A stretch of DNA of 63,205 nt, filler included, from a bacterium (GTDB lineage Bacteria; JALSQH01), in NCBI GenBank assembly GCA_027004335.1. It is 11 parts of 11 records of this genome, joined end to end, with 100 filler letters (N's around TTAATTAATTAA, not from the genome) between each part and the next. Parts side by side here need not be neighbours in the genome. Positions count along the whole stretch, not along the records: positions 57,005 to 63,205 come from JALTID010000239.1; 10 more parts are not named here. One strand, 5' to 3'. The notes beneath the pieces are model-generated. The model was given only the letters and a program-made list of their open reading frames with translations. It was not told where the DNA came from and made no database searches. Every line of letters starts with the position of its first letter. Position 1 is the stretch's first letter. This document shows, piece by piece, positions 4,667 to 63,205 of this stretch. The translations under genes were made by a program, and so were the position numbers.

Positions 4667-6487
4667 GTGAAGAAGATATTTATGATAGCAGGTTTATTTT
4701 TACTTTTTGCGTGCAATAGTGGTAAAAGTTTCACTGATATAGCGCAAAGAGGCTACATCCAGAATGTACAGGGAATAAAAATTGTTCATCTTTATGGCAC
4801 TCCTTATGAAATGGGATATGAGCATGGACGACTCCTTAAAACTGAGATCAGGGCATTCTACACGGAATTTTTTGAAAAAGCTGTTTTACCTGTAATTAAT
4901 CGGAATAAAACGCTCCTCATAGAATATTTTGATTACAGCTCGGAAAAATACAGTGGAGATAATTTCGCAAAACAACTTGTTCTGGATTCCGCCCATGAAA
5001 TGGAAAAATCAATTCCAGAAAGGTACATTGAGGAGATGAAAGGAATTGCTGATGGATCCGGGTTGCCATACGATGAGATCCTGATTATTAACACTTTTCC
5101 CGATGTTGTGGATTCCTTTCTTGAGATAGGAAACCTCTTTCAGGCTCTTGATGCGCCATTTATTAAGAGTATCATCTTTCCACGAGAAACAACAGAGGAT
5201 GGCATAGATAATAACGGGGATGGGGTAATTGATGCGCAGGATGAGAATGTAGTTTCACCTTACACTACTTCTCCTTTCGCAATTTATAGAGGTTTGAGTC
5301 CAGATGATTCAATAGAGGTAACTCTTCACGATGATGACGGAGTAGATCCCGAAAGGACGAAGGTTTACCTCAATGGAGAATTATGTGAAAAGTGTCCATT
5401 GTCTGAAACTGGAAATGATCTAAAAATAACAATATCAGATCTTCCCTTTCAGAATGGTAAGCTTTTTATTGAAATTGATTCGGCAGATAAAAAAGTGGTG
5501 GATTCGCCTCCTCCCCCCCATACAAATGCCATGAGGAGAGAGAGATTTTTACTCTTAGAGAATAGGGATACTTCTCTTCTCTCAGCTCCCAATTTTTCAG
5601 AAGGGATGATAACAGGTAGAGGAGCAGTCTCCAGTACTTTTGGCATCGTAAAAAATAATAATGTAATGGTGGGCAGGAATTTTATCTTTATGGATCTTAA
5701 TATTCTCCATCTTTACACATATCTTTTTGTGTATCACCCGGATTCGGGGAATCAGGTTATCTCAGCTGCTTTGCCCGGGATGGTTGGAGTTTTGACGGGA
5801 ATCAATGACAGAGGACTTTTTATTTCAGCAAATCAGGTTGAGAATGCTGATAATTCGGTAATAAAATCTATAGTTGACGAATTTAAAGTTTTCCTCTCAG
5901 GGGTTCCTGCAGATATAGCAGCAGGGGAAGCTCTGGAAGATTACGCAACATCCATTAGTGCTGAAGAATTCCTGAAATCATTTAACATTCCATCAGGCTG
6001 GAATTTTTTCGTTGCTGATAAAAATGGAAACCTTATCGCTGTAGAAAGGGATGCAGGTGTATGGGGCGGAGCTGGTAGAGCTTATTCTCCTGAAATTACT
6101 AAATGTTCTTCAACTTTCTGTCCCTTTAATTCTCCCGATGAACTCTGGGTAACAGGCGACTATGTCTTTAACCTGCCAGACATTGATTATGATCTTCTGG
6201 GAGGAGCTTTTCATCTACCTCCTCAGAATAAATGGGCATTCAGCTACTTCAGTGGTCTTAACACATTTTATGCCATAAAAACGCTTTTAAAGAAAGAGAA
6301 GGTTTCTACTGTTGACGATTTAATCCCGCTTTTGAAGCAGGCTTATTTATTTTCACCTGGCAATACAATTCACTCTCTTGCACTGGATCTTGTTAATATG
6401 GATGGATTCGTGGCACAGGGAAATGCCACTGCTACCGAGGGAGATTATGTATTCCTTGATTTTGAGAAACTTTTTAACAGTAAGTAG
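4667..6487 (+). CDS. Lipoprotein, C45/acid-ceramidase-like Ntn hydrolase with a large insertion
   Basis: Lipobox LFAC; HLYGTPYEMGYEHG, EEMKGIADG, GRNF and GVLTGINDRGL motifs; insert carries DGIDNNGDGVID. Confidence 0.75.
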   Translation: MKKIFMIAGLFLLFACNSGKSFTDIAQRGYIQNVQGIKIVHLYGTPYEMGYEHGRLLKTEIRAFYTEFFEKAVLPVINRNKTLLIEYFDYSSEKYSGDNFAKQLVLDSAHEMEKSIPERYIEEMKGIADGSGLPYDEILIINTFPDVVDSFLEIGNLFQALDAPFIKSIIFPRETTEDGIDNNGDGVIDAQDENVVSPYTTSPFAIYRGLSPDDSIEVTLHDDDGVDPERTKVYLNGELCEKCPLSETGNDLKITISDLPFQNGKLFIEIDSADKKVVDSPPPPHTNAMRRERFLLLENRDTSLLSAPNFSEGMITGRGAVSSTFGIVKNNNVMVGRNFIFMDLNILHLYTYLFVYHPDSGNQVISAALPGMVGVLTGINDRGLFISANQVENADNSVIKSIVDEFKVFLSGVPADIAAGEALEDYATSISAEEFLKSFNIPSGWNFFVADKNGNLIAVERDAGVWGGAGRAYSPEITKCSSTFCPFNSPDELWVTGDYVFNLPDIDYDLLGGAFHLPPQNKWAFSYFSGLNTFYAIKTLLKKEKVSTVDDLIPLLKQAYLFSPGNTIHSLALDLVNMDGFVAQGNATATEGDYVFLDFEKLFNSK

Positions 6488-7769
6488 TCTCTTACTTTTG
6501 CTGGTGCAGTTAGTCAGTGCCGGCACAGATTTTATTTTTACACCTGTTGAGAGCTATCATTTTTCAAATAACCTGCTTGATTCTGGAGGCTGGCTTGATG
6601 ACAGGGAGGATTATCTTGCTTCAGGTTTTGGACTTACCACTTCACCTGAGAGTAAAGATTTTTCCCTGAATATTCTTTTTGAATATGTAAAGGGCTCAGT
6701 TGTTCACAGAACATTTCCTGTAATTAACGAACAAATCAAATTCTCATACCCTTTTTACAAGAAAAGCTCAAAACCATTCGTAAGAATGTACTTCAACAGG
6801 ATTTTTTACAGAGTTCAGATAAGGAATTTTACCCTCATCGCTGGACTCTTTCCCCTTCATATTTCACCTGTTTCTATTCAATCGGATCTCCTGGGAGTTA
6901 AACTTAATTTTAAAAAACCAGGTAGTTCCTTTTTCTCAGGAGGGCTGAGTGTTGGGAGATTCCAGGAAAATATTGAGTATGGCGAGGGATGGGTTATAGA
7001 TATGGGGGAAAGTCAAGGGTATTACACCCCTGGAAGTGTTACTCCTTTCTATTTTATACCTGAGTTGCGGTTTTCATATAAAGTTGTAAGTGCTTTTTTA
7101 TACTATGCTATGAGCAACCAACTTGATAATTATGGCCTTACTATTTTTGTAGATTTAAAAAAATTAAAGCTGGCAGGGGGAACTGCAACTTCAGAACTTG
7201 GCTCTCCTTCTTCAACAGGATTTGCTGTTTATGGTAGAGCTGCTTATATACCTCATAAAAATATTTTGATTTTCCTTTTTTATGGAGAATCTTCAGGCTA
7301 CGATTACAAGCTTCACTGGCATGATAAGCAGTACTTTTACAGAGCACCAGCAGGAGGATTAAATGGAGGCTATATCCTGGGCAGAGAATTAAAAGGTTTC
7401 TCATCCCTGAGAATTCTTTCAGGTTCCACCGAGTATGTGAAAAAAGTTTTTAATCTGACTGCTTCGCTTTATTTTTACTGGAATAACACCATAGATTACA
7501 TGTTTGAATTTAATGATTACAATGTGCCAAAACCTTGTTTCCTTGGAAGTGAGGGGAACATATCAGTGGATGTTAAATTTAATAATGTATTTTTTAGCCT
7601 GAAATATGGGATTTTCTTCCCCGCGGGGGGATGGAAGAATTTGATCCTGGATGCCCTTTTCTGGCACTACAGGGAAACTTATGGGTATGAAAGAGCCATT
7701 GAGGAGGGAGAGAGCTATGATTTTTCGCCACCGGTGGAATTGATTTTGAGCGGGGGGATTGAGTTTTGA
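6447..7769 (+). CDS. Putative outer-membrane beta-barrel protein
   Basis: ATG 6447 after GAGGGAG; signal peptide; aromatic-rich alternating strands; C-terminal Phe (GIEF). Confidence 0.6.
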   Translation: MYSLILRNFLTVSSLLLLLVQLVSAGTDFIFTPVESYHFSNNLLDSGGWLDDREDYLASGFGLTTSPESKDFSLNILFEYVKGSVVHRTFPVINEQIKFSYPFYKKSSKPFVRMYFNRIFYRVQIRNFTLIAGLFPLHISPVSIQSDLLGVKLNFKKPGSSFFSGGLSVGRFQENIEYGEGWVIDMGESQGYYTPGSVTPFYFIPELRFSYKVVSAFLYYAMSNQLDNYGLTIFVDLKKLKLAGGTATSELGSPSSTGFAVYGRAAYIPHKNILIFLFYGESSGYDYKLHWHDKQYFYRAPAGGLNGGYILGRELKGFSSLRILSGSTEYVKKVFNLTASLYFYWNNTIDYMFEFNDYNVPKPCFLGSEGNISVDVKFNNVFFSLKYGIFFPAGGWKNLILDALFWHYRETYGYERAIEEGESYDFSPPVELILSGGIEF

Positions 7770-41783: not shown

Positions 41784-42389
41784 TTAAGCCTCCTTTATAT
41801 AACCTTTTTCAACAAGATGCCCTATTATTTTATCCACACTTTCTTCAATACTCAACTTATCGGTTTCTATGACAAGCTCTGGATTTTCAGGTTCTTCATA
41901 AGGATCATCTATACCGGTAAAATGCTTTATCTCTCCCGCCCTTGCTTTTTTATAAAGACCTTTGGGATCCCTTTCCTCACACACCTCAAGAGGAGCTTTG
42001 ACAAAAATTTCTATGAACTCTCCCTCTTCTAATAAGCTCCTTGCAAAATTTCTATCCTTTCTGTATGGTGAAATAAAAGCAGTTATCGCAACAAGTCCCG
42101 CATCTACAAAGAGTTTCACCACCTCACTGATCCTTCTTATATTTTCCTCCCTATCCTCTGCTGTAAATCCAAGATCCTTATTAAGACCCTTCCTTACATT
42201 ATCACCATCAAGAAGATAGGTATGAACCCTGTACTTTTTATTCAAAGTGTACTCCACCTCATTGGCAAGGGTGGATTTACCACTCCCTGAAAGCCCTGTA
42301 AACCAGAGAGCAAAAGGTTCATGTCCCTTTATTGCACTTCTGTCAGCTTTTGTCAGCTTATGTTTGTGCTCATAGATATGCTCTGTCAC
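41784..42389 (-). CDS. cysC: Adenylyl-sulfate kinase
   Basis: [26 protein letters not shown] and FTGIDDPYE motifs. Confidence 0.95.
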
Positions 42390-43111
42390 CGCAAAAACCT
42401 CCTTTTTACATAACCTACAATTTTATCCGTTGCCTCGCCTATATTCATTTTTCTCACATCTACCATAATTTCAGGATCAACAGGTTCTTCATAAGGGTCA
42501 GAAATTCCAGTGAAGTTTTTTATCTCTCCTCTCCTTGCCCTCTCATAAAGTCCCTCTCTGTCTCTTTTCTCACATGTTTCCACATCACATTTAAGATAAA
42601 CCTCAACAAAATTTTTACAGAGACCTCTGGCAAAACTCCTCATTTCTTCATATGGAGAGACAAAACTTGCGACAACACATATTCCATTCCTCTCAAGGAT
42701 ACTGGCGAGATGTGCTACTCTTTCATTATGAACAATCCTATCCTCCTGTGAAAAGCCCGTCTTAGGAAAGAGTTTTCTTATATCTCTTCCATCAAGTCTT
42801 TCAACTCTGAACCCCACTTTCTTTAATCTCTCAGCCACCTCATCACCAATGGTGGTCTTACCTGAGAGGGGAAGACCCGTTATCCATATTACAAAAGGCT
42901 CAATTTCCTCTTTCCCGAACCTGATCTTATTCCACACCCTTTCATGGATAAAATACACAATTATCTTGGCAATAAACTCAAAACCTCCGGCGATAGAGGC
43001 AAGCTTTAAATTGTGAAAAACCAGGTAAACAATGAGTATGGTAGTTAATGTTGCAAGGATTCTCCAGGAAAAAGCTTTTACAAGGGAGCGCTTTTTTGTT
43101 TCAACAATCAT
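42386..43111 (-). CDS. cysC: DUF2061 membrane domain fused to a second adenylyl-sulfate kinase
   Basis: [14 protein letters not shown]...YFIHERVW (DUF2061), then [12 protein letters not shown]...FTGISDPYE. Confidence 0.85.
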
Positions 43112-48495: not shown

Positions 48496-49480
48496 ATGGA
48501 AGTAAAGATTGTGAAAAAGGAAAATATCAAGTTGAGTAACAGAGATGAGAGGATACTTGAAAAGAAACTGGAAAAGCTTGAGAAAATCCTGGGAAAATTT
48601 GGTGCAAACAGTGAATCTACACTAAAAATTGAGATTAATCAGAGCAGTAAGAGAAAAGATTTTCTTTTGAAGGCTTATCTGCACTTAATGGGAAATATTG
48701 ACATTGTGGCTTCCAACAATCATTCTCAGCTTTCCTTTGCCATTGATGGGCTTTTTAAATCTCTTCTAAAAGAGATCAAGAGAAAAAAGGAAAAAATCAT
48801 AGAATCTCACAGGATTGAAAAAGAAGAGAAATTAGCGTATCTTATGAGCAGGGTTTCCCCGGAAGCTCAGAAAACCCTGAAAGATCTCCGTCCAGATCTA
48901 ATAAAATTTGCCAGAAGAATGGCTGTTGCTCATCTCCTGAATGATATGGAAAGCCTGGAAATGGTAGATGTTGATGAAATTGTTGGTGAAGCTATTAAGC
49001 GATCCACAGATGAAGGGCTATTTAAATCTTTTAGTGCCAATAAGAAATTACTTTATCAGAAGATTTCTGAAATTCTTAAGGAAAGAATCGAATCTCTGAC
49101 ACAGTCCTCTGAGGAGGAAGTCAGTATTGAGGAAGATATTCCTCTTGAACCTCCTGAGGAGGAAGTTTCTGATCTTGGCAGTGAAANNNNNNNNNNATGC
49201 ATGGCTAAAACTTGAGGATCTCATCCCTGCTGTAAATGCTGAGGGTGAACTTGAAGATGTACCTGATCTAACTGCCATAAAAGAAGAGATTTCTGAAAGA
49301 ATAAAGGGAATACTTCCAGAATTTTCCCCTGTGGAGAGAAAAATTCTTGCCCTTTTCATATTTGATGAGTTTGAACCTTATGAGATCGCTATGATTTTGA
49401 ATAAGAAAACAGAAGATGTTAGAGAGATTCTGATAAGATCACTTAAAAAACTTTTTAAGGAGTTATCAGGAGAGAGATGA
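48496..49480 (+). CDS. HPF/RaiA (S30AE) domain fused to a sigma70-like C-terminal region; one gene split by a 10-N gap
   Basis: N-term: ERILEKKLEKLEK, three strands, LSFAIDGLFKSLLKEIKR (HPF fold); C-term: FSPVERKILALFIFDEFEPYEIAMIL...VREILIRSLKKL (region 4 HTH); GGAGG RBS. Confidence 0.7.
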
Positions 49481-50811
49481 AAAAGAAGTTTTTGCTTTTT
49501 AGTGTCATATTACTGCTAATTATGAGTAGTTGTGGGAATAAAAAGAAAAGTAATAGTGAAGAGGTGTATCTTTCTACTTCCTTTCCGATGCTAACTTATT
49601 CATTGGATGTTCCTTCTGATGGTGCGTATTATCTTTCAGTTTCAATTCACGGGGATAATTTTGCGTGGAACAGATCCTCCTGTCCTTCAGTGGTGATTGA
49701 TGTTTTCCGAAGCAGGAATGTATGGGCTGGTTCTCTAATTCTCTGGGATCCTAATTTTGAGTATACCCTGTTTTTAGGTGATCTTAAAAAAGGTTCAGAA
49801 AGTTTAACCTTTAAATTTTCTCCAGAAAAGTCTCCATGTAGTGATGCAAAAATTGAAATTAATAAGCTGCAACTTGTTAAGTTTTCCGGTATCTCAGAAG
49901 CATGCATCGCAAATGTACCTTACCTCCTTGGTTATAAAAAAACCCTTACTCTTGATGGGAAAGATTTTCCCTATAACACAATGTCTGATCTACCCCTTTT
50001 TTGGGTTTGTAAGAAGGAGGGGGAAAGATTGGAATATATTCTTTACTATTCAAATGAAGATGGTGGAACCGGGGTTTTTCCTGGTGTGTTAATGTATACA
50101 TGGGGGAGAGTAGCAGATATTGAAAATGCATTTACTGTGGATTTAGGAAGTGATAAGGAGTATATGAGAGACAACGAAACTGAGGATACCCTTTTTCAGG
50201 GAGAGAATTACCTCGGTCATCCCCTTTTGATGGTTTCTCCCGAGGATCATGGGCTTGTGACCGAGGGGAAAATAGAGGATGATACCAAACAGTTGCTTTT
50301 TGCTCTGCCTGTATATCCGGCAGTGAACTCTGCTCCTACGAGAGAAGATTACCTTGATATGGAACCCTGGACCTATCTTATAATGGAATGGGAGATGGAG
50401 AGAGAGGGAAAAATAACAACTGAAGAATCAAAACTCAGTGATCAGTGTGACTTTCTCGCTCCTCTTGATTATTATCTTTACCTTGATCTTTATATTTCTG
50501 ACGAAACAAAGATAGCAATGGATGTGAAACTCTCCAGCGGAGATGAAATTACAAATAACTCCTCGGGGTTGAGCTGGAATTTTTCAGGGTGGAAAAGGGT
50601 GGTTTTGAAATTACCTGAGGAGGTAAAATTGAAAAACATAGAAGAGATCCGCATGGTAAATTTAGGTGATACTAAAGTAAAAGTAGAAATAGGCAAGCTC
50701 TTTTATCTTAACAGAGATTTCTCTACTCTTCATTACATAGTTCCTTCCAATTCCCCTATCTCTTCAGAGTTATCACCTCATGAAGATTGGTTACTTCATC
50801 CTATCAGGTGA
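49477..50811 (+). CDS. Hypothetical lipoprotein
   Basis: Lipobox MSSC; ATGA overlap with the upstream gene; YSNEDGGT...WGR..DIE motif. Confidence 0.65.
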   Translation: MKKKFLLFSVILLLIMSSCGNKKKSNSEEVYLSTSFPMLTYSLDVPSDGAYYLSVSIHGDNFAWNRSSCPSVVIDVFRSRNVWAGSLILWDPNFEYTLFLGDLKKGSESLTFKFSPEKSPCSDAKIEINKLQLVKFSGISEACIANVPYLLGYKKTLTLDGKDFPYNTMSDLPLFWVCKKEGERLEYILYYSNEDGGTGVFPGVLMYTWGRVADIENAFTVDLGSDKEYMRDNETEDTLFQGENYLGHPLLMVSPEDHGLVTEGKIEDDTKQLLFALPVYPAVNSAPTREDYLDMEPWTYLIMEWEMEREGKITTEESKLSDQCDFLAPLDYYLYLDLYISDETKIAMDVKLSSGDEITNNSSGLSWNFSGWKRVVLKLPEEVKLKNIEEIRMVNLGDTKVKVEIGKLFYLNRDFSTLHYIVPSNSPISSELSPHEDWLLHPIR

Positions 50812-52638
50812 AGAAGATTTATTTTCCTCTATTTCGTTCAGATTCTTGGGGAGTTTTATCGTGAAAGTAGTGCCTTCTCCTTTTTTAGATTCAACACCAA
50901 TTTCTCCATAGTGATCTTGAATGATTCTGGAGGAGATACTTAACCCCAGTCCTGTGCCTTTTCCAGGAGGTTTTGTTGTAAAAAAGGGATCAAAAATTCT
51001 GGAAAGGGCTTCTTCAGAGATACCAATCCCATTATCTGAGATTTTAACATATTGAAATTTTGCATCTTCCCATGCTGTTATCTCAATTTTTCCCTTTTCT
51101 CCTTTTTCTGTTACCGCATCAGCTGCATTGTTTAAAAGGTTAATAAATACCTGGGTTAACTGATTTGGGTAGCAGAATATCGGTCTTAATTTTGGGATAT
51201 TCATTTTTATTTCAGGCACATATTTAAGTTTAGTATGAGCAAAGTCTATGGCATCTTTAAGGATTGAAGAGAGGCTTATCATTTCTATTGATCCCTTTTC
51301 AGTTCTGCTGAGTTTTTTGAGTCCAGAAATTATCTTCTTGGTATGTTCAATTCCCTTATTAGACTCAGATATTAGATTTTGAATATCTGAAAGGATAAAA
51401 TCAATTTCTTCATTATTTACGACTTCTTTTATTTTTTCACATGCTCCTTCTCCTGTTAGTTGCCTTATCATTTTTATGCTCCCCCCCATCTCTTCAAGAT
51501 ATTCTTGCATAGAAAAAATATTACTTGTTACATATCCCAGGGCGTTATTCAGTTCGTGAGCTATTCCTGCAGAAAGTTCTCCTATAACAGCGATCTTTTC
51601 TGTTTCAATTAACTTTGATTGAGTTGCTTTCAATTCTTTTATTGTTTTTTCAAGTTCTCTGGTTCTTTCAATTATCTTGTCTTCCAATTCCATATTCATC
51701 TTATCTAGTTCAAGATTGACTTTGACCACTTCTTTTATCAGAGCAGCTCTTTCCAGAGCTCCAGCTATTAGGTTTGAAAGAGATTGAAGAGCAGACAGGT
51801 AACCACCTTGTCTGAATTTTTTTATGTTCTTAATATTGATTAATTCCCCAACTCCGATTACTGTTCCATCAGATTTTAATATGGGGACTGCTACAATATT
51901 TTTAGTGGTGAATCCTGAGCGAGTGTCCACTATCCGTGCAAATCTTGGGTCTGAGTAAAGATCATCTACAATTATTGGTTTCTTATTTGTAAAACACCAT
52001 CCAGCTATCCCCTGATCTTTTTTTAACTTTACCGATTTGACCTTTGGATCTCCTCCCACAGTGGTATAGAAAATAAGTGCATCTTCTTTCTCATCGTAGG
52101 TTAAGATGGTGCTTCCTTCACACTGAAATATCGTTTTGACTGAAGTGAGGACATTTTTTAGTATTATTTCTTTTTCCATAGCAGAATTGATCTGGTTGGA
52201 TGTTTCTAAAAGGAGATTAAGAAGCTGGATTTTTTCCCTTAGATTTTCAGTGAGCCTCTCGTTTTCTTTTAAGATTTTTAGCCGGTTAAGGGCATTTTTT
52301 GTGACAAACTCCACTTCATGAGGATCAGGGGGCTTGGGGATAAAGTCAATAACTCCAGATCTGAGTGCCTTTAAAATAGTGTCTCTGTCCTTTTTAGCTG
52401 AAATAAGAACAACCCCGGTAGATGGAAATCTCTTCCTTAATGAGTCCAGATGATCAAAGGCATTTTCACCGGGGAAAAGAATATCAAGAAGAATTAAATC
52501 TATCTGAGTACCTTCCAGAATTTCCCACATTTCTTTAAGAGAAAGTGCTGTAAAAATTTCATATTTAAAAGGGATAAGAATATCCTTCAGAAATTCTACC
52601 ATATATTTTTCATCATCTACAATCAGAATTGATGGCAT
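50791..52638 (-). CDS. Hybrid sensor histidine kinase (REC-GAF-HisKA-HATPase)
   Basis: LIVDD/LLD/KP receiver; GIAGW GAF; AHELNN, NLLNNA, DNGIG and [15 protein letters not shown]. Confidence 0.92.
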
Positions 52639-53159
52639 TATTCTTCCTCTGTATCATCAAGGATAATTCTACCTTCTTCGTCCTTTTTAACTTTTGTGAT
52701 ACCTGGATATTCTTTTTCCAGTGAATCAATTAGATTTTTTGCTTTTTCAAGTTGATCAAGTAACTTCCTGTGTTCCCTTTCAAGCCTCAGGTGTTCAGAT
52801 GCCAATCTCAGAGAAAGCCTTAACTCTTCATCATCCCATGGTTTTAAGAAAAATCTATAAATCTCTCCTTCATTTATTGCTTCTGCGGCGACTTCAAGAT
52901 CTGCCTGACCCGTGAGCATTATTCTTATGGTGTCAGGATAATTTTCTCTGATCCATTTCAGGAATTCAAGCCCGTTTGTCCCTGGCATTTTAAAATCGGA
53001 GACAACTATGTCAAATGGTTTCTCATAAAATTTGTCAGCGGCCTCTTTTGCACTGGTAGCCGTTTCAATTTCGTATGGTTCTTTCCGCAGTGATCTTCTC
53101 AATGCACTGAGTATATTTTCCTCATCGTCAACCAGAAGTAACCTTAATTTTTTCTCCAT
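52638..53159 (-). CDS. Response regulator (receiver plus short coiled tail)
   Basis: LLVDDE, SDFKMP, MLTG and KPW motifs. Confidence 0.9.
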   Translation of the reverse strand: MEKKLRLLLVDDEENILSALRRSLRKEPYEIETATSAKEAADKFYEKPFDIVVSDFKMPGTNGLEFLKWIRENYPDTIRIMLTGQADLEVAAEAINEGEIYRFFLKPWDDEELRLSLRLASEHLRLEREHRKLLDQLEKAKNLIDSLEKEYPGITKVKKDEEGRIILDDTEEE

Positions 53160-60948: not shown

Positions 60949-61083
60949 AATTGTACCTCTTTGAAGAAATTATATTTCATGTGGAGTTAACTTCAACCCT
61001 TCCTTTTTCAATTTCCCTGATTATGTTATTATATAAGAACAGAGATAGTGATGTAATGATAAAGGATAAGTCGGAGGTACAGT

Positions 61084-62232
61084 ATGATTGTTCTTAATGA
61101 AGAGATTAGAAGGCTACGGCAGTTTGTTAGAAGCGAACATCCTCTAATCAATTTCTATCTTTCTATTAATCCTATCAGATTCAAGGAGAAAGAATGGAAG
61201 ATAAAATTGAAGGATCTTGTTAAGGAAGCCAAAGAAAATTTGAGACTTGAGGCGAAATACCCCCGTGCAGAGATCAAGAGAATTTACAGTGACATGGATT
61301 ATATGGAAAGAGAGATAAATTCTATTGACTTTTCAGGTGCAAAGTCCATAGTGTGGTTTTACAGCAGTAGCCTGGCTCTTGATGTCCTGTTTAAAATTCC
61401 TGAAGAATTACCAAGGAATGATTTTATAACTGTTTCGGAATTACCCAACTATCTCCTCCTTGATGAGGTCATGTCCAATTTTAAGAGGTATCTCCTGATC
61501 CTTTTTGATAAAGAAAGAGTCAGGTTTCTTGAATATTTTATGAAGAAAATAAGAGAGTATATGAACATCAGAGAAAGAATTCACAGGGTCGAGGATTTTA
61601 ATGATTATGGGGCTGTTGAGAATAGGATCAAACGGCATGTGATGTACCACACATACAGGCATTTTAAAAATATAATGCTTCTTGCAAAGCAGATAATAGA
61701 GGAAGAAGAAATTGATGGTGTTATACTTGCTTCCAGTGCAAATTATCTTTCTATGTTAAACGAGAATCTTGATTATGAAATTAAAAACAGGCTCGTTAGA
61801 GAGATAACTGGCCTTGATATAAATGCTGGGAGAGAAGAAATATTAAAGAAGATTGAGTCTATTGAAAAGGACCTGAAAAGGGAAGAGGAGGAAGAACTTT
61901 TCAGGAAATTAGAGGAGAATCTCGGTACAGATGGGAAGGCAACAGCAGGGATATCCGATTCCCTTAACGCATTGTATGAGGGTAAGGTAGAAACACTGCT
62001 TATTTCTCCATCTTTTAATGAGGAAGGATATGCATGTCCCTCATGCTATTATGTTTCTCTAAACATGGAGAAGTGTCCTTACTGCGGAAACGAAATGGAA
62101 AAGCTGAATAATGTACTAAACAAAATATATGATCTTGCCATCCTGAATAGTTCAAGGGTGAAACATATTAATTTCCTCACAGAAAAATTGGAAGAAAGGG
62201 GAGAAGTTGCTGCTTTGTTGAGATTCAGATAA
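61084..62232 (+). CDS. Bacterial aeRF1/pelota-like protein (baeRF family) with a C-terminal Zn ribbon
   Basis: GKATAG...LYEGKVETLLI...CPSC...CPYCG...GEVAALLRF is eRF1 domain 3; GGAGG RBS. Confidence 0.85.
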   Translation: MIVLNEEIRRLRQFVRSEHPLINFYLSINPIRFKEKEWKIKLKDLVKEAKENLRLEAKYPRAEIKRIYSDMDYMEREINSIDFSGAKSIVWFYSSSLALDVLFKIPEELPRNDFITVSELPNYLLLDEVMSNFKRYLLILFDKERVRFLEYFMKKIREYMNIRERIHRVEDFNDYGAVENRIKRHVMYHTYRHFKNIMLLAKQIIEEEEIDGVILASSANYLSMLNENLDYEIKNRLVREITGLDINAGREEILKKIESIEKDLKREEEEELFRKLEENLGTDGKATAGISDSLNALYEGKVETLLISPSFNEEGYACPSCYYVSLNMEKCPYCGNEMEKLNNVLNKIYDLAILNSSRVKHINFLTEKLEERGEVAALLRFR

Positions 62233-62248
62233 GGGGCTTATGGCATAG

Positions 62249-62959
62249 ATGTTTCCTTTAAAAGATGATATTCCTTCGCGAACCTTTCCCTGGGTTAATT
62301 ATTCAATAATTATCTTAAATTTTATTGTGTTCTTCTATGAGATTTCGCTGGGGAGTCATTTTCAGATATTTCTTGCACAATATGGTTTCGTTCCCCTTAG
62401 ATTTAGTGTGGGAATAGAACGGCATCTTCCCTTTTTCACTCTCATTCTTCCAGTTTTTTATTCTATGTTTCTTCATGGAGGCTGGTTTCATATTATAGGA
62501 AATATGTGGTTCCTCTATATTTTTGGGGACAATGTTGAGGATCGCCTGGGCCATTTTCATTACATAATTTTTTATCTTGTATCAGGTTGTATTGCCGTGT
62601 TTACCCAGTACATAATAAATCCTTATACCAATATCCCTCTTATTGGTGCAAGTGGAGCTATTGCAGGGGTTTTAGGTGCCTACATGGTTTTTTATCCTTA
62701 CGCCCGGGTGCTGACATTGCTAATAATTTTTATTTTTATTGATATTGTATATCTCCCTGCGATCCTGTATCTTTTCCTCTGGTTTTTTATACAATTTCTG
62801 TATGGAACTTCTTCAGCTCTCTACGCCTCTGCTACTCGCGGGGGAGTTGCATGGTGGGCGCATGTTGGTGGTTTTGTATTTGGTGTTATATGGGCAATTA
62901 TTATAAGATTAAGAGGTGGAAATGAAAAAGATTATCTTCATGAAATACTGCCATGGTAG
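62249..62959 (+). CDS. Rhomboid intramembrane serine protease
   Basis: MFLHGGWFHIIGNM, GASGAIAG and AWWAHVGG motifs. Confidence 0.93.
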   Translation: MFPLKDDIPSRTFPWVNYSIIILNFIVFFYEISLGSHFQIFLAQYGFVPLRFSVGIERHLPFFTLILPVFYSMFLHGGWFHIIGNMWFLYIFGDNVEDRLGHFHYIIFYLVSGCIAVFTQYIINPYTNIPLIGASGAIAGVLGAYMVFYPYARVLTLLIIFIFIDIVYLPAILYLFLWFFIQFLYGTSSALYASATRGGVAWWAHVGGFVFGVIWAIIIRLRGGNEKDYLHEILPW

Positions 62960-62968
62960 GAGGTCAGG

Positions 62969-63205
62969 ATGGATCATGCGATGAGCGGTGGAACTCCTAT
63001 TGCTCTTGCGGCTGATGAGATATATATGGATCACAATGCAGTCATGGGGCCAGTTGATCCGCAGCTTGGTGATATGCCAGCAGCAAGCCTTATTAAAATA
63101 CCTGAGATGAAGTCTTATGAAAAAATAGAGGATAGAACTCTGGTCTTGATAGATTTGTCTAAAAAAGCGATAAAGCAGATATGTGATTTTGTGAACTGGA
63201 TCCTT
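62969..63205 (+). pseudogene. SDH-family Clp-fold serine protease fragment (continues at 48410)
   Basis: AGGAGG RBS, then MDHAMSGGTPIALAADEIYMDHNAVMGPVDPQLG; joined ORF is only 102 aa. Confidence 0.7.

Follow-up and report, generated by a model that had tools for sequence, protein, structure and literature searches.

A predicted five-gene operon combining a Balon-like factor with an HPF-ECF sigma fusion in a JALSQH01 bacterium

We analyzed a 63,205-nt window (the whole stretch of DNA, filler included) from a bacterium of the JALSQH01 lineage (GenBank assembly GCA_027004335.1), with a focus on five plus-strand open reading frames (ORFs) that may form a ribosome-linked dormancy module. The window is made up of 11 contigs separated by N44-TTAATTAATTAA-N44 linkers, and the gene set runs from the last contig, contig 11, into contig 9. 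In order, the genes encode a 382-aa, three-domain bacterial homologue of the archaeo-eukaryotic release factor aeRF1 (baeRF), which is Balon-like and has a Zn ribbon (61084-62232, PF18854); a 236-aa rhomboid intramembrane serine protease (62249-62959, PF01694, E 2.1e-33); the remnant of an SDH-type Clp-fold protease (PF01972), with a 5′ part of 79 codons that reaches the end of contig 11 (62969-63205) and a 3′ end of 23 codons plus stop on contig 9 (48410-48481); a fusion of a hibernation promoting factor (HPF/RaiA) domain with an extracytoplasmic function (ECF)-type sigma factor (48496-49480); and a 444-aa lipoprotein with no family assigned (49477-50811). The gaps between them measure 16, 9 and 14 nt, followed by a 4-nt overlap (ATGA) in which the lipoprotein start overlaps the fusion stop. 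All five ORFs, with their coordinates and spacings, had been called in an initial annotation of this DNA and were reproduced here. Judged from their layout and conservation, the five genes are a single predicted operon that was cut by the assembler at a strain-variable point.

Since the genes lie on two contigs, the join between them deserves attention. Every contig end was compared with every other in both orientations at a threshold of at least 15 nt, and a single suffix-prefix overlap was recovered: contig 11 ends (63079-63205) with exactly the 127 nt that begin contig 9 (48283-48409), and the window has no third copy of this 127-mer. In a de Bruijn graph with k=127, neighboring edges share an exact 127-nt overlap. 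For the window baeRF, rhomboid, GH31 and thioesterase proteins, all of contig 11, the longest contig on record is 25,058 nt; the same length is recorded for the hybrid kinase of contig 9, and the lipoprotein has a match at 443 of 444 identical residues on a contig of 25,058 nt. P0184, a protein of 102 aa recorded on a contig of that length, equals the protease ORF joined in silico at 101 of 102 residues. The lone mismatch is residue 80, the first codon past the 127-mer. We infer that a strain polymorphism sits exactly at the graph vertex and that the assembler stopped at the join because of it; contigs 11 and 9 might come from slightly different strains. The join proposed in the initial annotation is therefore borne out by the exact overlap, by the spanning P0184 and by synteny with a relative, and on this synteny and the database records it is correct at the level of the locus.

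In the relative, all five genes lie contiguously and in unchanged order on an 18-kb contig (locus L001), with gaps of 11, 10, 15 and -4 nt. Protein identities between the window and L001 are 70, 73, 77, 58-70 and 57% in gene order. The synteny extends upstream to a GH31 gene and a 4HBT thioesterase gene, and downstream to an aldehyde dehydrogenase gene on the opposite strand, which in the window lies on contig 9 beyond an inserted two-component pair. This pair (50794-53159, minus strand), placed between the lipoprotein and aldehyde dehydrogenase genes, consists of a receiver-GAF-histidine kinase hybrid and a single receiver protein, and the end of the hybrid kinase gene overlaps the end of the lipoprotein gene by ~20 nt. 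In L001, the dehydrogenase comes directly after the lipoprotein. L001 has an addition of its own between GH31 and the thioesterase (5618-7509), with genes for a DNA methyltransferase-like protein of 417 aa and a partner of 201 aa, neither of which is found in the window; from a by-eye inspection of the translation, it looks like a restriction-modification insertion.

The fusion gene was called in the initial annotation as one ORF. Its coordinates stand, but a 10-N scaffold gap (49187-49196) interrupts the reading and its continuity is taken from relatives. The N-terminal part (48496-49186, plus strand) holds the HPF/RaiA domain (PF02482), a long helix, sigma region 2 and the start of an acidic linker, and is 58% identical to the L001 protein (329 aa) over residues 1-229 of the latter. 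The C-terminal part (49197-49480, plus strand) holds the end of the linker and sigma region 4, and aligns to L001 residues 238-329 with 70% identity. In three close relatives the protein is uninterrupted, with 329 aa, and its sequence at the gap point is GSE-ILDFYQPD-AWLKLE. Thus, about 21 nt are presumably missing at the gap with the frame kept, and the frame of the fusion is most likely continuous. No other motif in the family is as well conserved as the one that the gap covers (ILDFYQPD in these relatives), and the window copy of it is unreadable.

The two halves of the fusion are identified by profiles and by a predicted structure. The HPF domain of the window protein (aa 6-101) scores 32.0 bits against PF02482, where the cut-off is 23.7. 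For the ECF model we used the L001 orthologue, the window's own protein being interrupted by the N gap; it passes the NCBIfam sigma70-ECF model TIGR02937 with 47.5 bits (cut-off 42.9) over aa 126-326, spanning profile positions 6-165 of 165, and regions 2 and 4 are therefore both present. An AlphaFold2 (AF2) model of the L001 fusion, based on a 77-row alignment, reached a predicted local distance difference test (pLDDT) score of 86.1 and consists of an HPF fold of the beta-alpha-beta-beta-beta-alpha type (residues 1-117), four sigma2 helices (121-206), a disordered acidic linker (207-258) and sigma4 (259-328). In Foldseek comparisons this model fits HPFs with a target TM-score (TMt) of 0.82-0.88 and a root-mean-square deviation (rmsd) of about 2 Å, and ECF sigmas with ~0.63. 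The family profile searched against the PDB gave ECF sigmas at 1.4e-19 and HPFs at 7.6e-14. A complex prediction of the HPF half with the sigma half scored 0.00, a result that counts for neither side. Taken together, sequence profiles and model indicate that the fourth gene encodes a complete HPF/RaiA fold joined to a complete ECF-type sigma factor made of sigma2, an acidic linker of ~50 aa and sigma4. The earlier HPF and sigma domain calls hold (PF02482, TIGR02937), and what had been described as a sigma-like domain is more than that, a whole ECF-type sigma and not region 4 alone.

An exhaustive search of 1.84 billion representatives with the fusion profile returned 1365 proteins at E<=1e-3 and 362 at E<=1e-10, and the top 150 matches are mostly 310-385 aa long with the whole profile covered. 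Among 77 full-length members, S30AE was found in 65 and Sigma70_r4_2 in 67. Ten clusters were looked up, two of which carry a name, "RNA polymerase sigma factor (sigma-70 family)". To these we added 79 further metagenome loci, fetched via a single linker motif (from a 13-member alignment subset) and sorted into 30 groups at at least 90% nucleotide identity. The HPF and sigma parts are fused in 46 of these loci and split into adjacent genes in 13, where a separate HPF gene is followed directly by the sigma gene, often with an overlap; ten loci have the sigma only, seven are cut by a contig edge and three could not be called. The alternation of fused and split forms speaks for HPF and sigma working together, in whatever manner.

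In 12 of the 79 loci, a gene of baeRF family 10 is found 1-2 kb downstream; these loci represent five of the 30 groups, and five of the 12 groups whose downstream sequence extends for 3 kb or more. The two families, HPF-sigma and baeRF family 10, therefore recur together in unrelated metagenome loci, and the co-location of homologs that had been put forward for survey is found. The survey was less kind to the other half of the proposed neighborhood. The rhomboid/SDH link is real but rare, being seen in two of the 79 other loci, one with a rhomboid-SDH-HPF-sigma trio (L031) and one with an SDH-HPF-sigma pair (L063). The conserved core over distant lineages is HPF plus an ECF-type sigma, fused or adjacent, with baeRF family 10 repeatedly alongside.

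A Pfam scan covering 343 of the 452 neighboring ORFs showed that the neighbors are overwhelmingly stress genes, including thioredoxin, PsiE, a phosphoglycerate kinase-universal stress protein (PGK-Usp) fusion, G6PD, BON, Hsp20, Usp, DJ-1, TerC, catalase, ferritin and DUF6335. Several fusions come after GrpE-DnaJ-MerR-ClpB. The full run of GrpE, DnaJ, a MerR-type regulator and ClpB precedes the fusion in L005; upstream of the fusion, L018 has ClpB alone before the contig end, L049 has DnaJ and MerR, and L066 has DnaJ and ClpB. The PGK-Usp fusion recurs in five loci. It is found right after baeRF family 10 in four of them (L013 3144-4775, L022 3427-5061, L045 10250-11890 and L053 3666-5306) and upstream of HPF-sigma in L067 (149-1939), where no baeRF was seen. 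A DUF6335 gene of ~150-160 aa lies directly before HPF-sigma, abutting or overlapping it, in nine loci (L017, L039, L040, L047, L052, L058, L062, L079 and L081) that belong to one large locus group, and its product is a candidate partner or anti-sigma of HPF-sigma. L025 and L026 are at least 90% identical in the sigma region, with PsiE and baeRF downstream in L026 and not in L025, so the neighborhood turns over quickly.

The first gene of the window operon was described in the initial annotation as aeRF1-like, a call that is upheld and can be narrowed to Balon-like in both sequence and predicted fold. The window protein scores 51.6 bits against the Pfam baeRF_family10 model PF18854 (gathering cut-off 27.1) and its L001 orthologue 60.9 bits. 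When a profile of the window protein and 10 relatives was searched against the PDB, the best solved relative was the mycobacterial Balon MSMEG_1130, matched over its full length (E 1e-21), and eRF1 followed at E 1.9e-8. The AF2 model (pLDDT 87.1, predicted TM-score 0.78) has ribosome-bound Balon as its top Foldseek match (8v9j_z, E 6.7e-23, query TM-score (TMq) 0.74, rmsd 4.5). The Balon of P. urativorans fits with TMq 0.68-0.71 (8rdw_B 0.71), and aRF1 and eRF1 with TMq ~0.5 and rmsd 11-12 (0.53 and 12.2 for aRF1 4af1). The four invariant Cys of the Zn ribbon are kept. In the window translation neither of the release-factor motifs GGQ and NIKS is present, and the catalytic loop reads YG-AVEN, with no glutamine. 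Against the NCBIfam Balon equivalogs, the L001 orthologue scores far below the cut-offs (40.4 vs 480 bits for the MSMEG_1130 family and 35.3 vs 320 bits for the Rv2629 family). Based on these profiles and the model, the protein is filed as a Balon-like member of family 10 and not as Balon proper.

For the two protease genes, the rhomboid and SDH/Clp-fold domain calls are correct (PF01694, PF01972), although only the first gene appears intact. HxxxN, GxSG and AHxxGxxxG, the catalytic motifs of rhomboids, can be read by eye in its translation, and the protein is 73% identical to its L001 orthologue. The Clp-fold protease belongs to the family named in the initial annotation but is a remnant and not a full protease. 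Its joined ORF runs for 102 aa with no stop or frameshift and covers PF01972 profile positions 129-214 of 286, whereas the L001 protease has 278 aa and passes NF047768 (424 bits vs 250). Relative to L001, a first in-frame deletion removes residues ~6-124, spanning the stretch between the start codon and the Ser motif AMSGGT and taking out the membrane anchor and roughly the first 120 residues; a second in-frame deletion affects the C-terminal part. The retained core is 77% identical to L001. A full-length SDH catalytic domain with an N-terminal membrane anchor is thus not found in the window remnant, which is unlikely to be active as a protease. The 102-aa form is also on the 25-kb contig and is therefore no artefact of the present assembly. 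Another short SDH-protease-like protein (P0185, 130 aa, four member sequences) occurs elsewhere, and truncated forms may not be unique to the window genome.

The lipoprotein has a signal peptide and Cys that can be read in the translation, is 57% identical to its L001 orthologue and matches no Pfam or NCBIfam family; in the Atlas it falls into unnamed clusters only, most commonly from Acidobacteriota. The initial annotation had also proposed an arm of membrane proteolysis and a link to envelope signaling, of which the first is weak and the second unsupported. The SDH protease has decayed to 102 of ~278 aa, rhomboid or SDH genes stand beside HPF-sigma in only two of the 79 other loci, and there is no membrane anti-sigma factor to serve as a substrate: no membrane-spanning anti-sigma gene lies beside the sigma, where the downstream gene is the lipoprotein with its signal peptide and lack of family match, and the model predicts no membrane segment in the fusion protein. 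A cascade of the regulated intramembrane proteolysis type acting on an anti-sigma was considered and rejected since this substrate is missing. For the same reason the envelope signaling reading, for which adjacency is the sole evidence, is unsupported. In our reading, the switch does not include the rhomboid, SDH protease or lipoprotein, which would be passengers specific to this lineage or members of the regulon.

Two features flank the predicted operon. In the 135-nt region upstream of the first gene, a promoter-like block (TTTTCA, 16 nt, TG-n-TATTAT; 60999-61032, plus strand) has ~31 nt that are near-identical in the window and L001, with the surrounding spacer diverged. A terminator-like hairpin, a single consensus match, lies at the end of the last gene (50794-50813, plus strand). 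Away from the operon, the window has two adjoining adenylylsulfate kinase genes at 41787-43111 (minus strand), the second fused to a DUF2061 membrane domain.

How do these genes compare with known systems? Balon is encoded next to RaiA, and alternative sigma-70 factors are among its neighbors, according to the main text of Helena-Bueno et al. (2024, PMC10901736); neighborhoods of baeRF-1 and HPF are described in the main text of Burroughs and Aravind (2019, PMC6514570). The pairing of two ribosome-silencing factors that the initial annotation had highlighted is thus present, but the baeRF-HPF pairing is not new because it is already in print. Like Balon-RaiA, the window operon encodes an aeRF1 homologue without GGQ plus an HPF-family domain; the predicted fold of its baeRF fits ribosome-bound Balon best, and stress-gene neighborhoods are common to both. 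Unlike Balon, the window baeRF belongs to Pfam family 10, falls far under the NCBIfam Balon cut-offs and keeps the Zn ribbon, and unlike RaiA, the HPF partner forms one polypeptide with an ECF sigma. An HPF-ECF sigma fusion is absent from the main texts of these two papers, and "rhomboid" is not mentioned in either of them. Full-text literature searches found no description of an HPF-sigma fusion, with an earlier supplementary listing being possible.

Two other groups of proteins share part of the architecture. Long HPF, mycobacterial RafH and the archaeal HPF-CBS protein HibA (PMC13324472) also have an N-terminal HPF/RaiA fold followed by a second domain that would add regulation. In the fusion, however, the second module is a whole ECF-type sigma and not a dimerization or ligand-sensing domain. 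The pro-sigma BldN/ECF121 has an N-terminal extension that is cut off, and ECF N-terminal extensions are generally short, as stated in the main text of Casas-Pastor et al. (2021, PMC7826278), which has zero mentions of ribosomes or hibernation. Like BldN/ECF121, the fusion has an ECF-type core with an extra N-terminal domain and no classical anti-sigma gene nearby; unlike it, the extension comprises ~118 aa and folds as a domain that belongs to a ribosome-binding family.

The explanation that we favor, with a confidence only a little better than even, is that the five genes are one operon forming a dormancy module. During starvation or stress, the baeRF protein would sit in the ribosomal A site, by analogy with Balon, and the HPF domain of the fusion, to judge from its family, would plug vacant 30S/70S ribosomes at their decoding channel. 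Its sigma moiety would guide RNA polymerase to genes of the stress response. Through the covalent link between this sigma and a domain that binds ribosomes, the supply of vacant ribosomes would titrate or gate sigma availability, coupling translational state to transcription. In its most specific form, HPF-sigma would be a ribosome-gated sigma, with the vacant ribosome as its anti-sigma and sensor and the number of idle ribosomes setting the dormancy sigma, in partnership with the Balon-like factor. We offer this last version tentatively, as a possibility that is on balance doubtful.

Several points count against the dormancy module. Ribosome binding, RNA polymerase binding and co-transcription are inferred throughout. 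Sigma region 2 is degenerate, with Sigma70_r2 detected at E<=1e-3 in three of the 77 full-length members vs 45 for PhyR_sigma-like. Region 4 of the window protein scores 18.5 bits against Sigma70_r4, below the cut-off of 24.1, and the HPF domain of the L001 protein stays under the PF02482 cut-off with 18.1 and 22.1 bits in two scans. The fusion is the sole PF02482 match in the 2.4-Mb genome of L001, but as an argument that it is the only HPF in the genome this is weak because the genome is a metagenome-assembled genome (MAG) and may be incomplete. The sample of 79 loci is biased because it was fetched through one linker motif. Ten of its loci have a sigma without a detected HPF, and baeRF is absent from seven of the 12 groups with enough downstream sequence. 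The promoter scan that yields the sigma-70-type match at 61005-61032 gives no more sites than shuffles, and the scan behind the hairpin at 50794-50813 does no better than shuffles. Moreover, the conserved upstream block looks to be of the housekeeping type and not the ECF type, and autoregulation is therefore not indicated.

The simplest objection to the locus is that the join, the protease deletions or both are assembly artefacts and that the five genes are contiguous in no real genome. The break does fall inside a gene, and neither deletion is more than about 240 nt away from a contig end. Yet L001 carries the same order on a contiguous contig, genes of both window contigs are recorded on the 25,058-nt contig, the 102-aa protein recorded there spans the join with both deletions, and the single mismatch right after the 127-mer would fit a strain variant at a graph branch. 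On the strength of L001 and the 25,058-nt records we rejected this possibility, to which we give hardly any probability. Nor do we expect the baeRF protein to be a catalytic peptidyl-tRNA hydrolase, that is, an alternative release or rescue factor and not a hibernation factor. The main text of Burroughs and Aravind (PMC6514570) singles out family 10 for its well-conserved catalytic-loop glutamine, and a GG..SQ loop occurs in 11 of 25 aligned family-10 rows. The sigma-linked members are different, since the glutamine is kept in none of their 12 rows vs 11 of the remaining 13, and is lost alike in the four rows of the window's clade and in the eight soil rows that lie beside an HPF-sigma gene. 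With GGQ and NIKS missing from the window protein and its model fitting ribosome-bound Balon better than aRF1 or eRF1, the protein is probably non-catalytic and a catalytic role seems very improbable.

The nature of the sigma half is a closer question. Because region 2 is degenerate, this half could be a PhyR-like sigma mimic, an HPF-controlled anti-anti-sigma that captures an anti-sigma and frees another sigma by partner switching. As in PhyR, a sigma2/sigma4-like module is joined to a signal-receiving domain; besides the PhyR_sigma-like hits, PhyR-family structures are among the PDB matches of the family profile, and among sigmas the top Foldseek hits are compact structures bound to an anti-sigma (5uxx_C, with NepR, and 5wuq_A, with RsiW). 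However, TIGR02937 is passed over both regions, and the PDB search ranks ECF sigmas above PhyR (1.4e-19 vs ~1e-8 to 1e-12). The PhyR_sigma-like model covers a region-4-like helix-turn-helix only, for which cross-hits would be expected. Unlike PhyR, the fusion has the reverse domain order, no receiver domain and no NepR or EcfG neighbors, and the 343 annotated neighbor ORFs show no recurrent gene for a second sigma or for a small NepR-like protein. We regard a PhyR-like mimic as clearly unlikely. It is also unlikely, to a lesser degree, that there is no integrated system at all, the genes being neighbors of convenience in a stress locus, with the fusion a long hibernation factor whose sigma-derived tail has another use (e.g. 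dimerization, as known for long HPFs) and with baeRF, proteases and lipoprotein acting independently. The protease has decayed here while the neighboring genes stayed, rhomboid and SDH genes adjoin HPF-sigma in only the two loci mentioned, the lipoprotein is found in the window's clade only, and HPF N-terminal domains with varied C-terminal domains are known, such as HibA (PMC13324472), long HPFs and RafH. Against this, the order of the genes and their close packing persist at protein identities of 57-77%, fused and split HPF/sigma forms alternate over the 30 sequence groups, the sigma part retains the full ECF-like layout and a strongly conserved linker motif, and baeRF recurs in five of the 12 informative groups.

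Whatever the fate of the five-gene module, the fusion family is the part worth following up, as it is large, with hundreds of 50%-identity clusters. The operon would also extend Balon-like factors to baeRF family 10, formerly suspected to be catalytic, with sigma-linked members that do not have the key glutamine. Small molecules, ppGpp among them, are mostly used to explain how ribosome shutdown is coordinated with stress transcription. One protein serving as both hibernation factor and sigma factor would physically link both machines. If the ribosome-gated reading is true, it would represent an undescribed but widespread way of controlling sigma factors, wiring translation directly to transcription.

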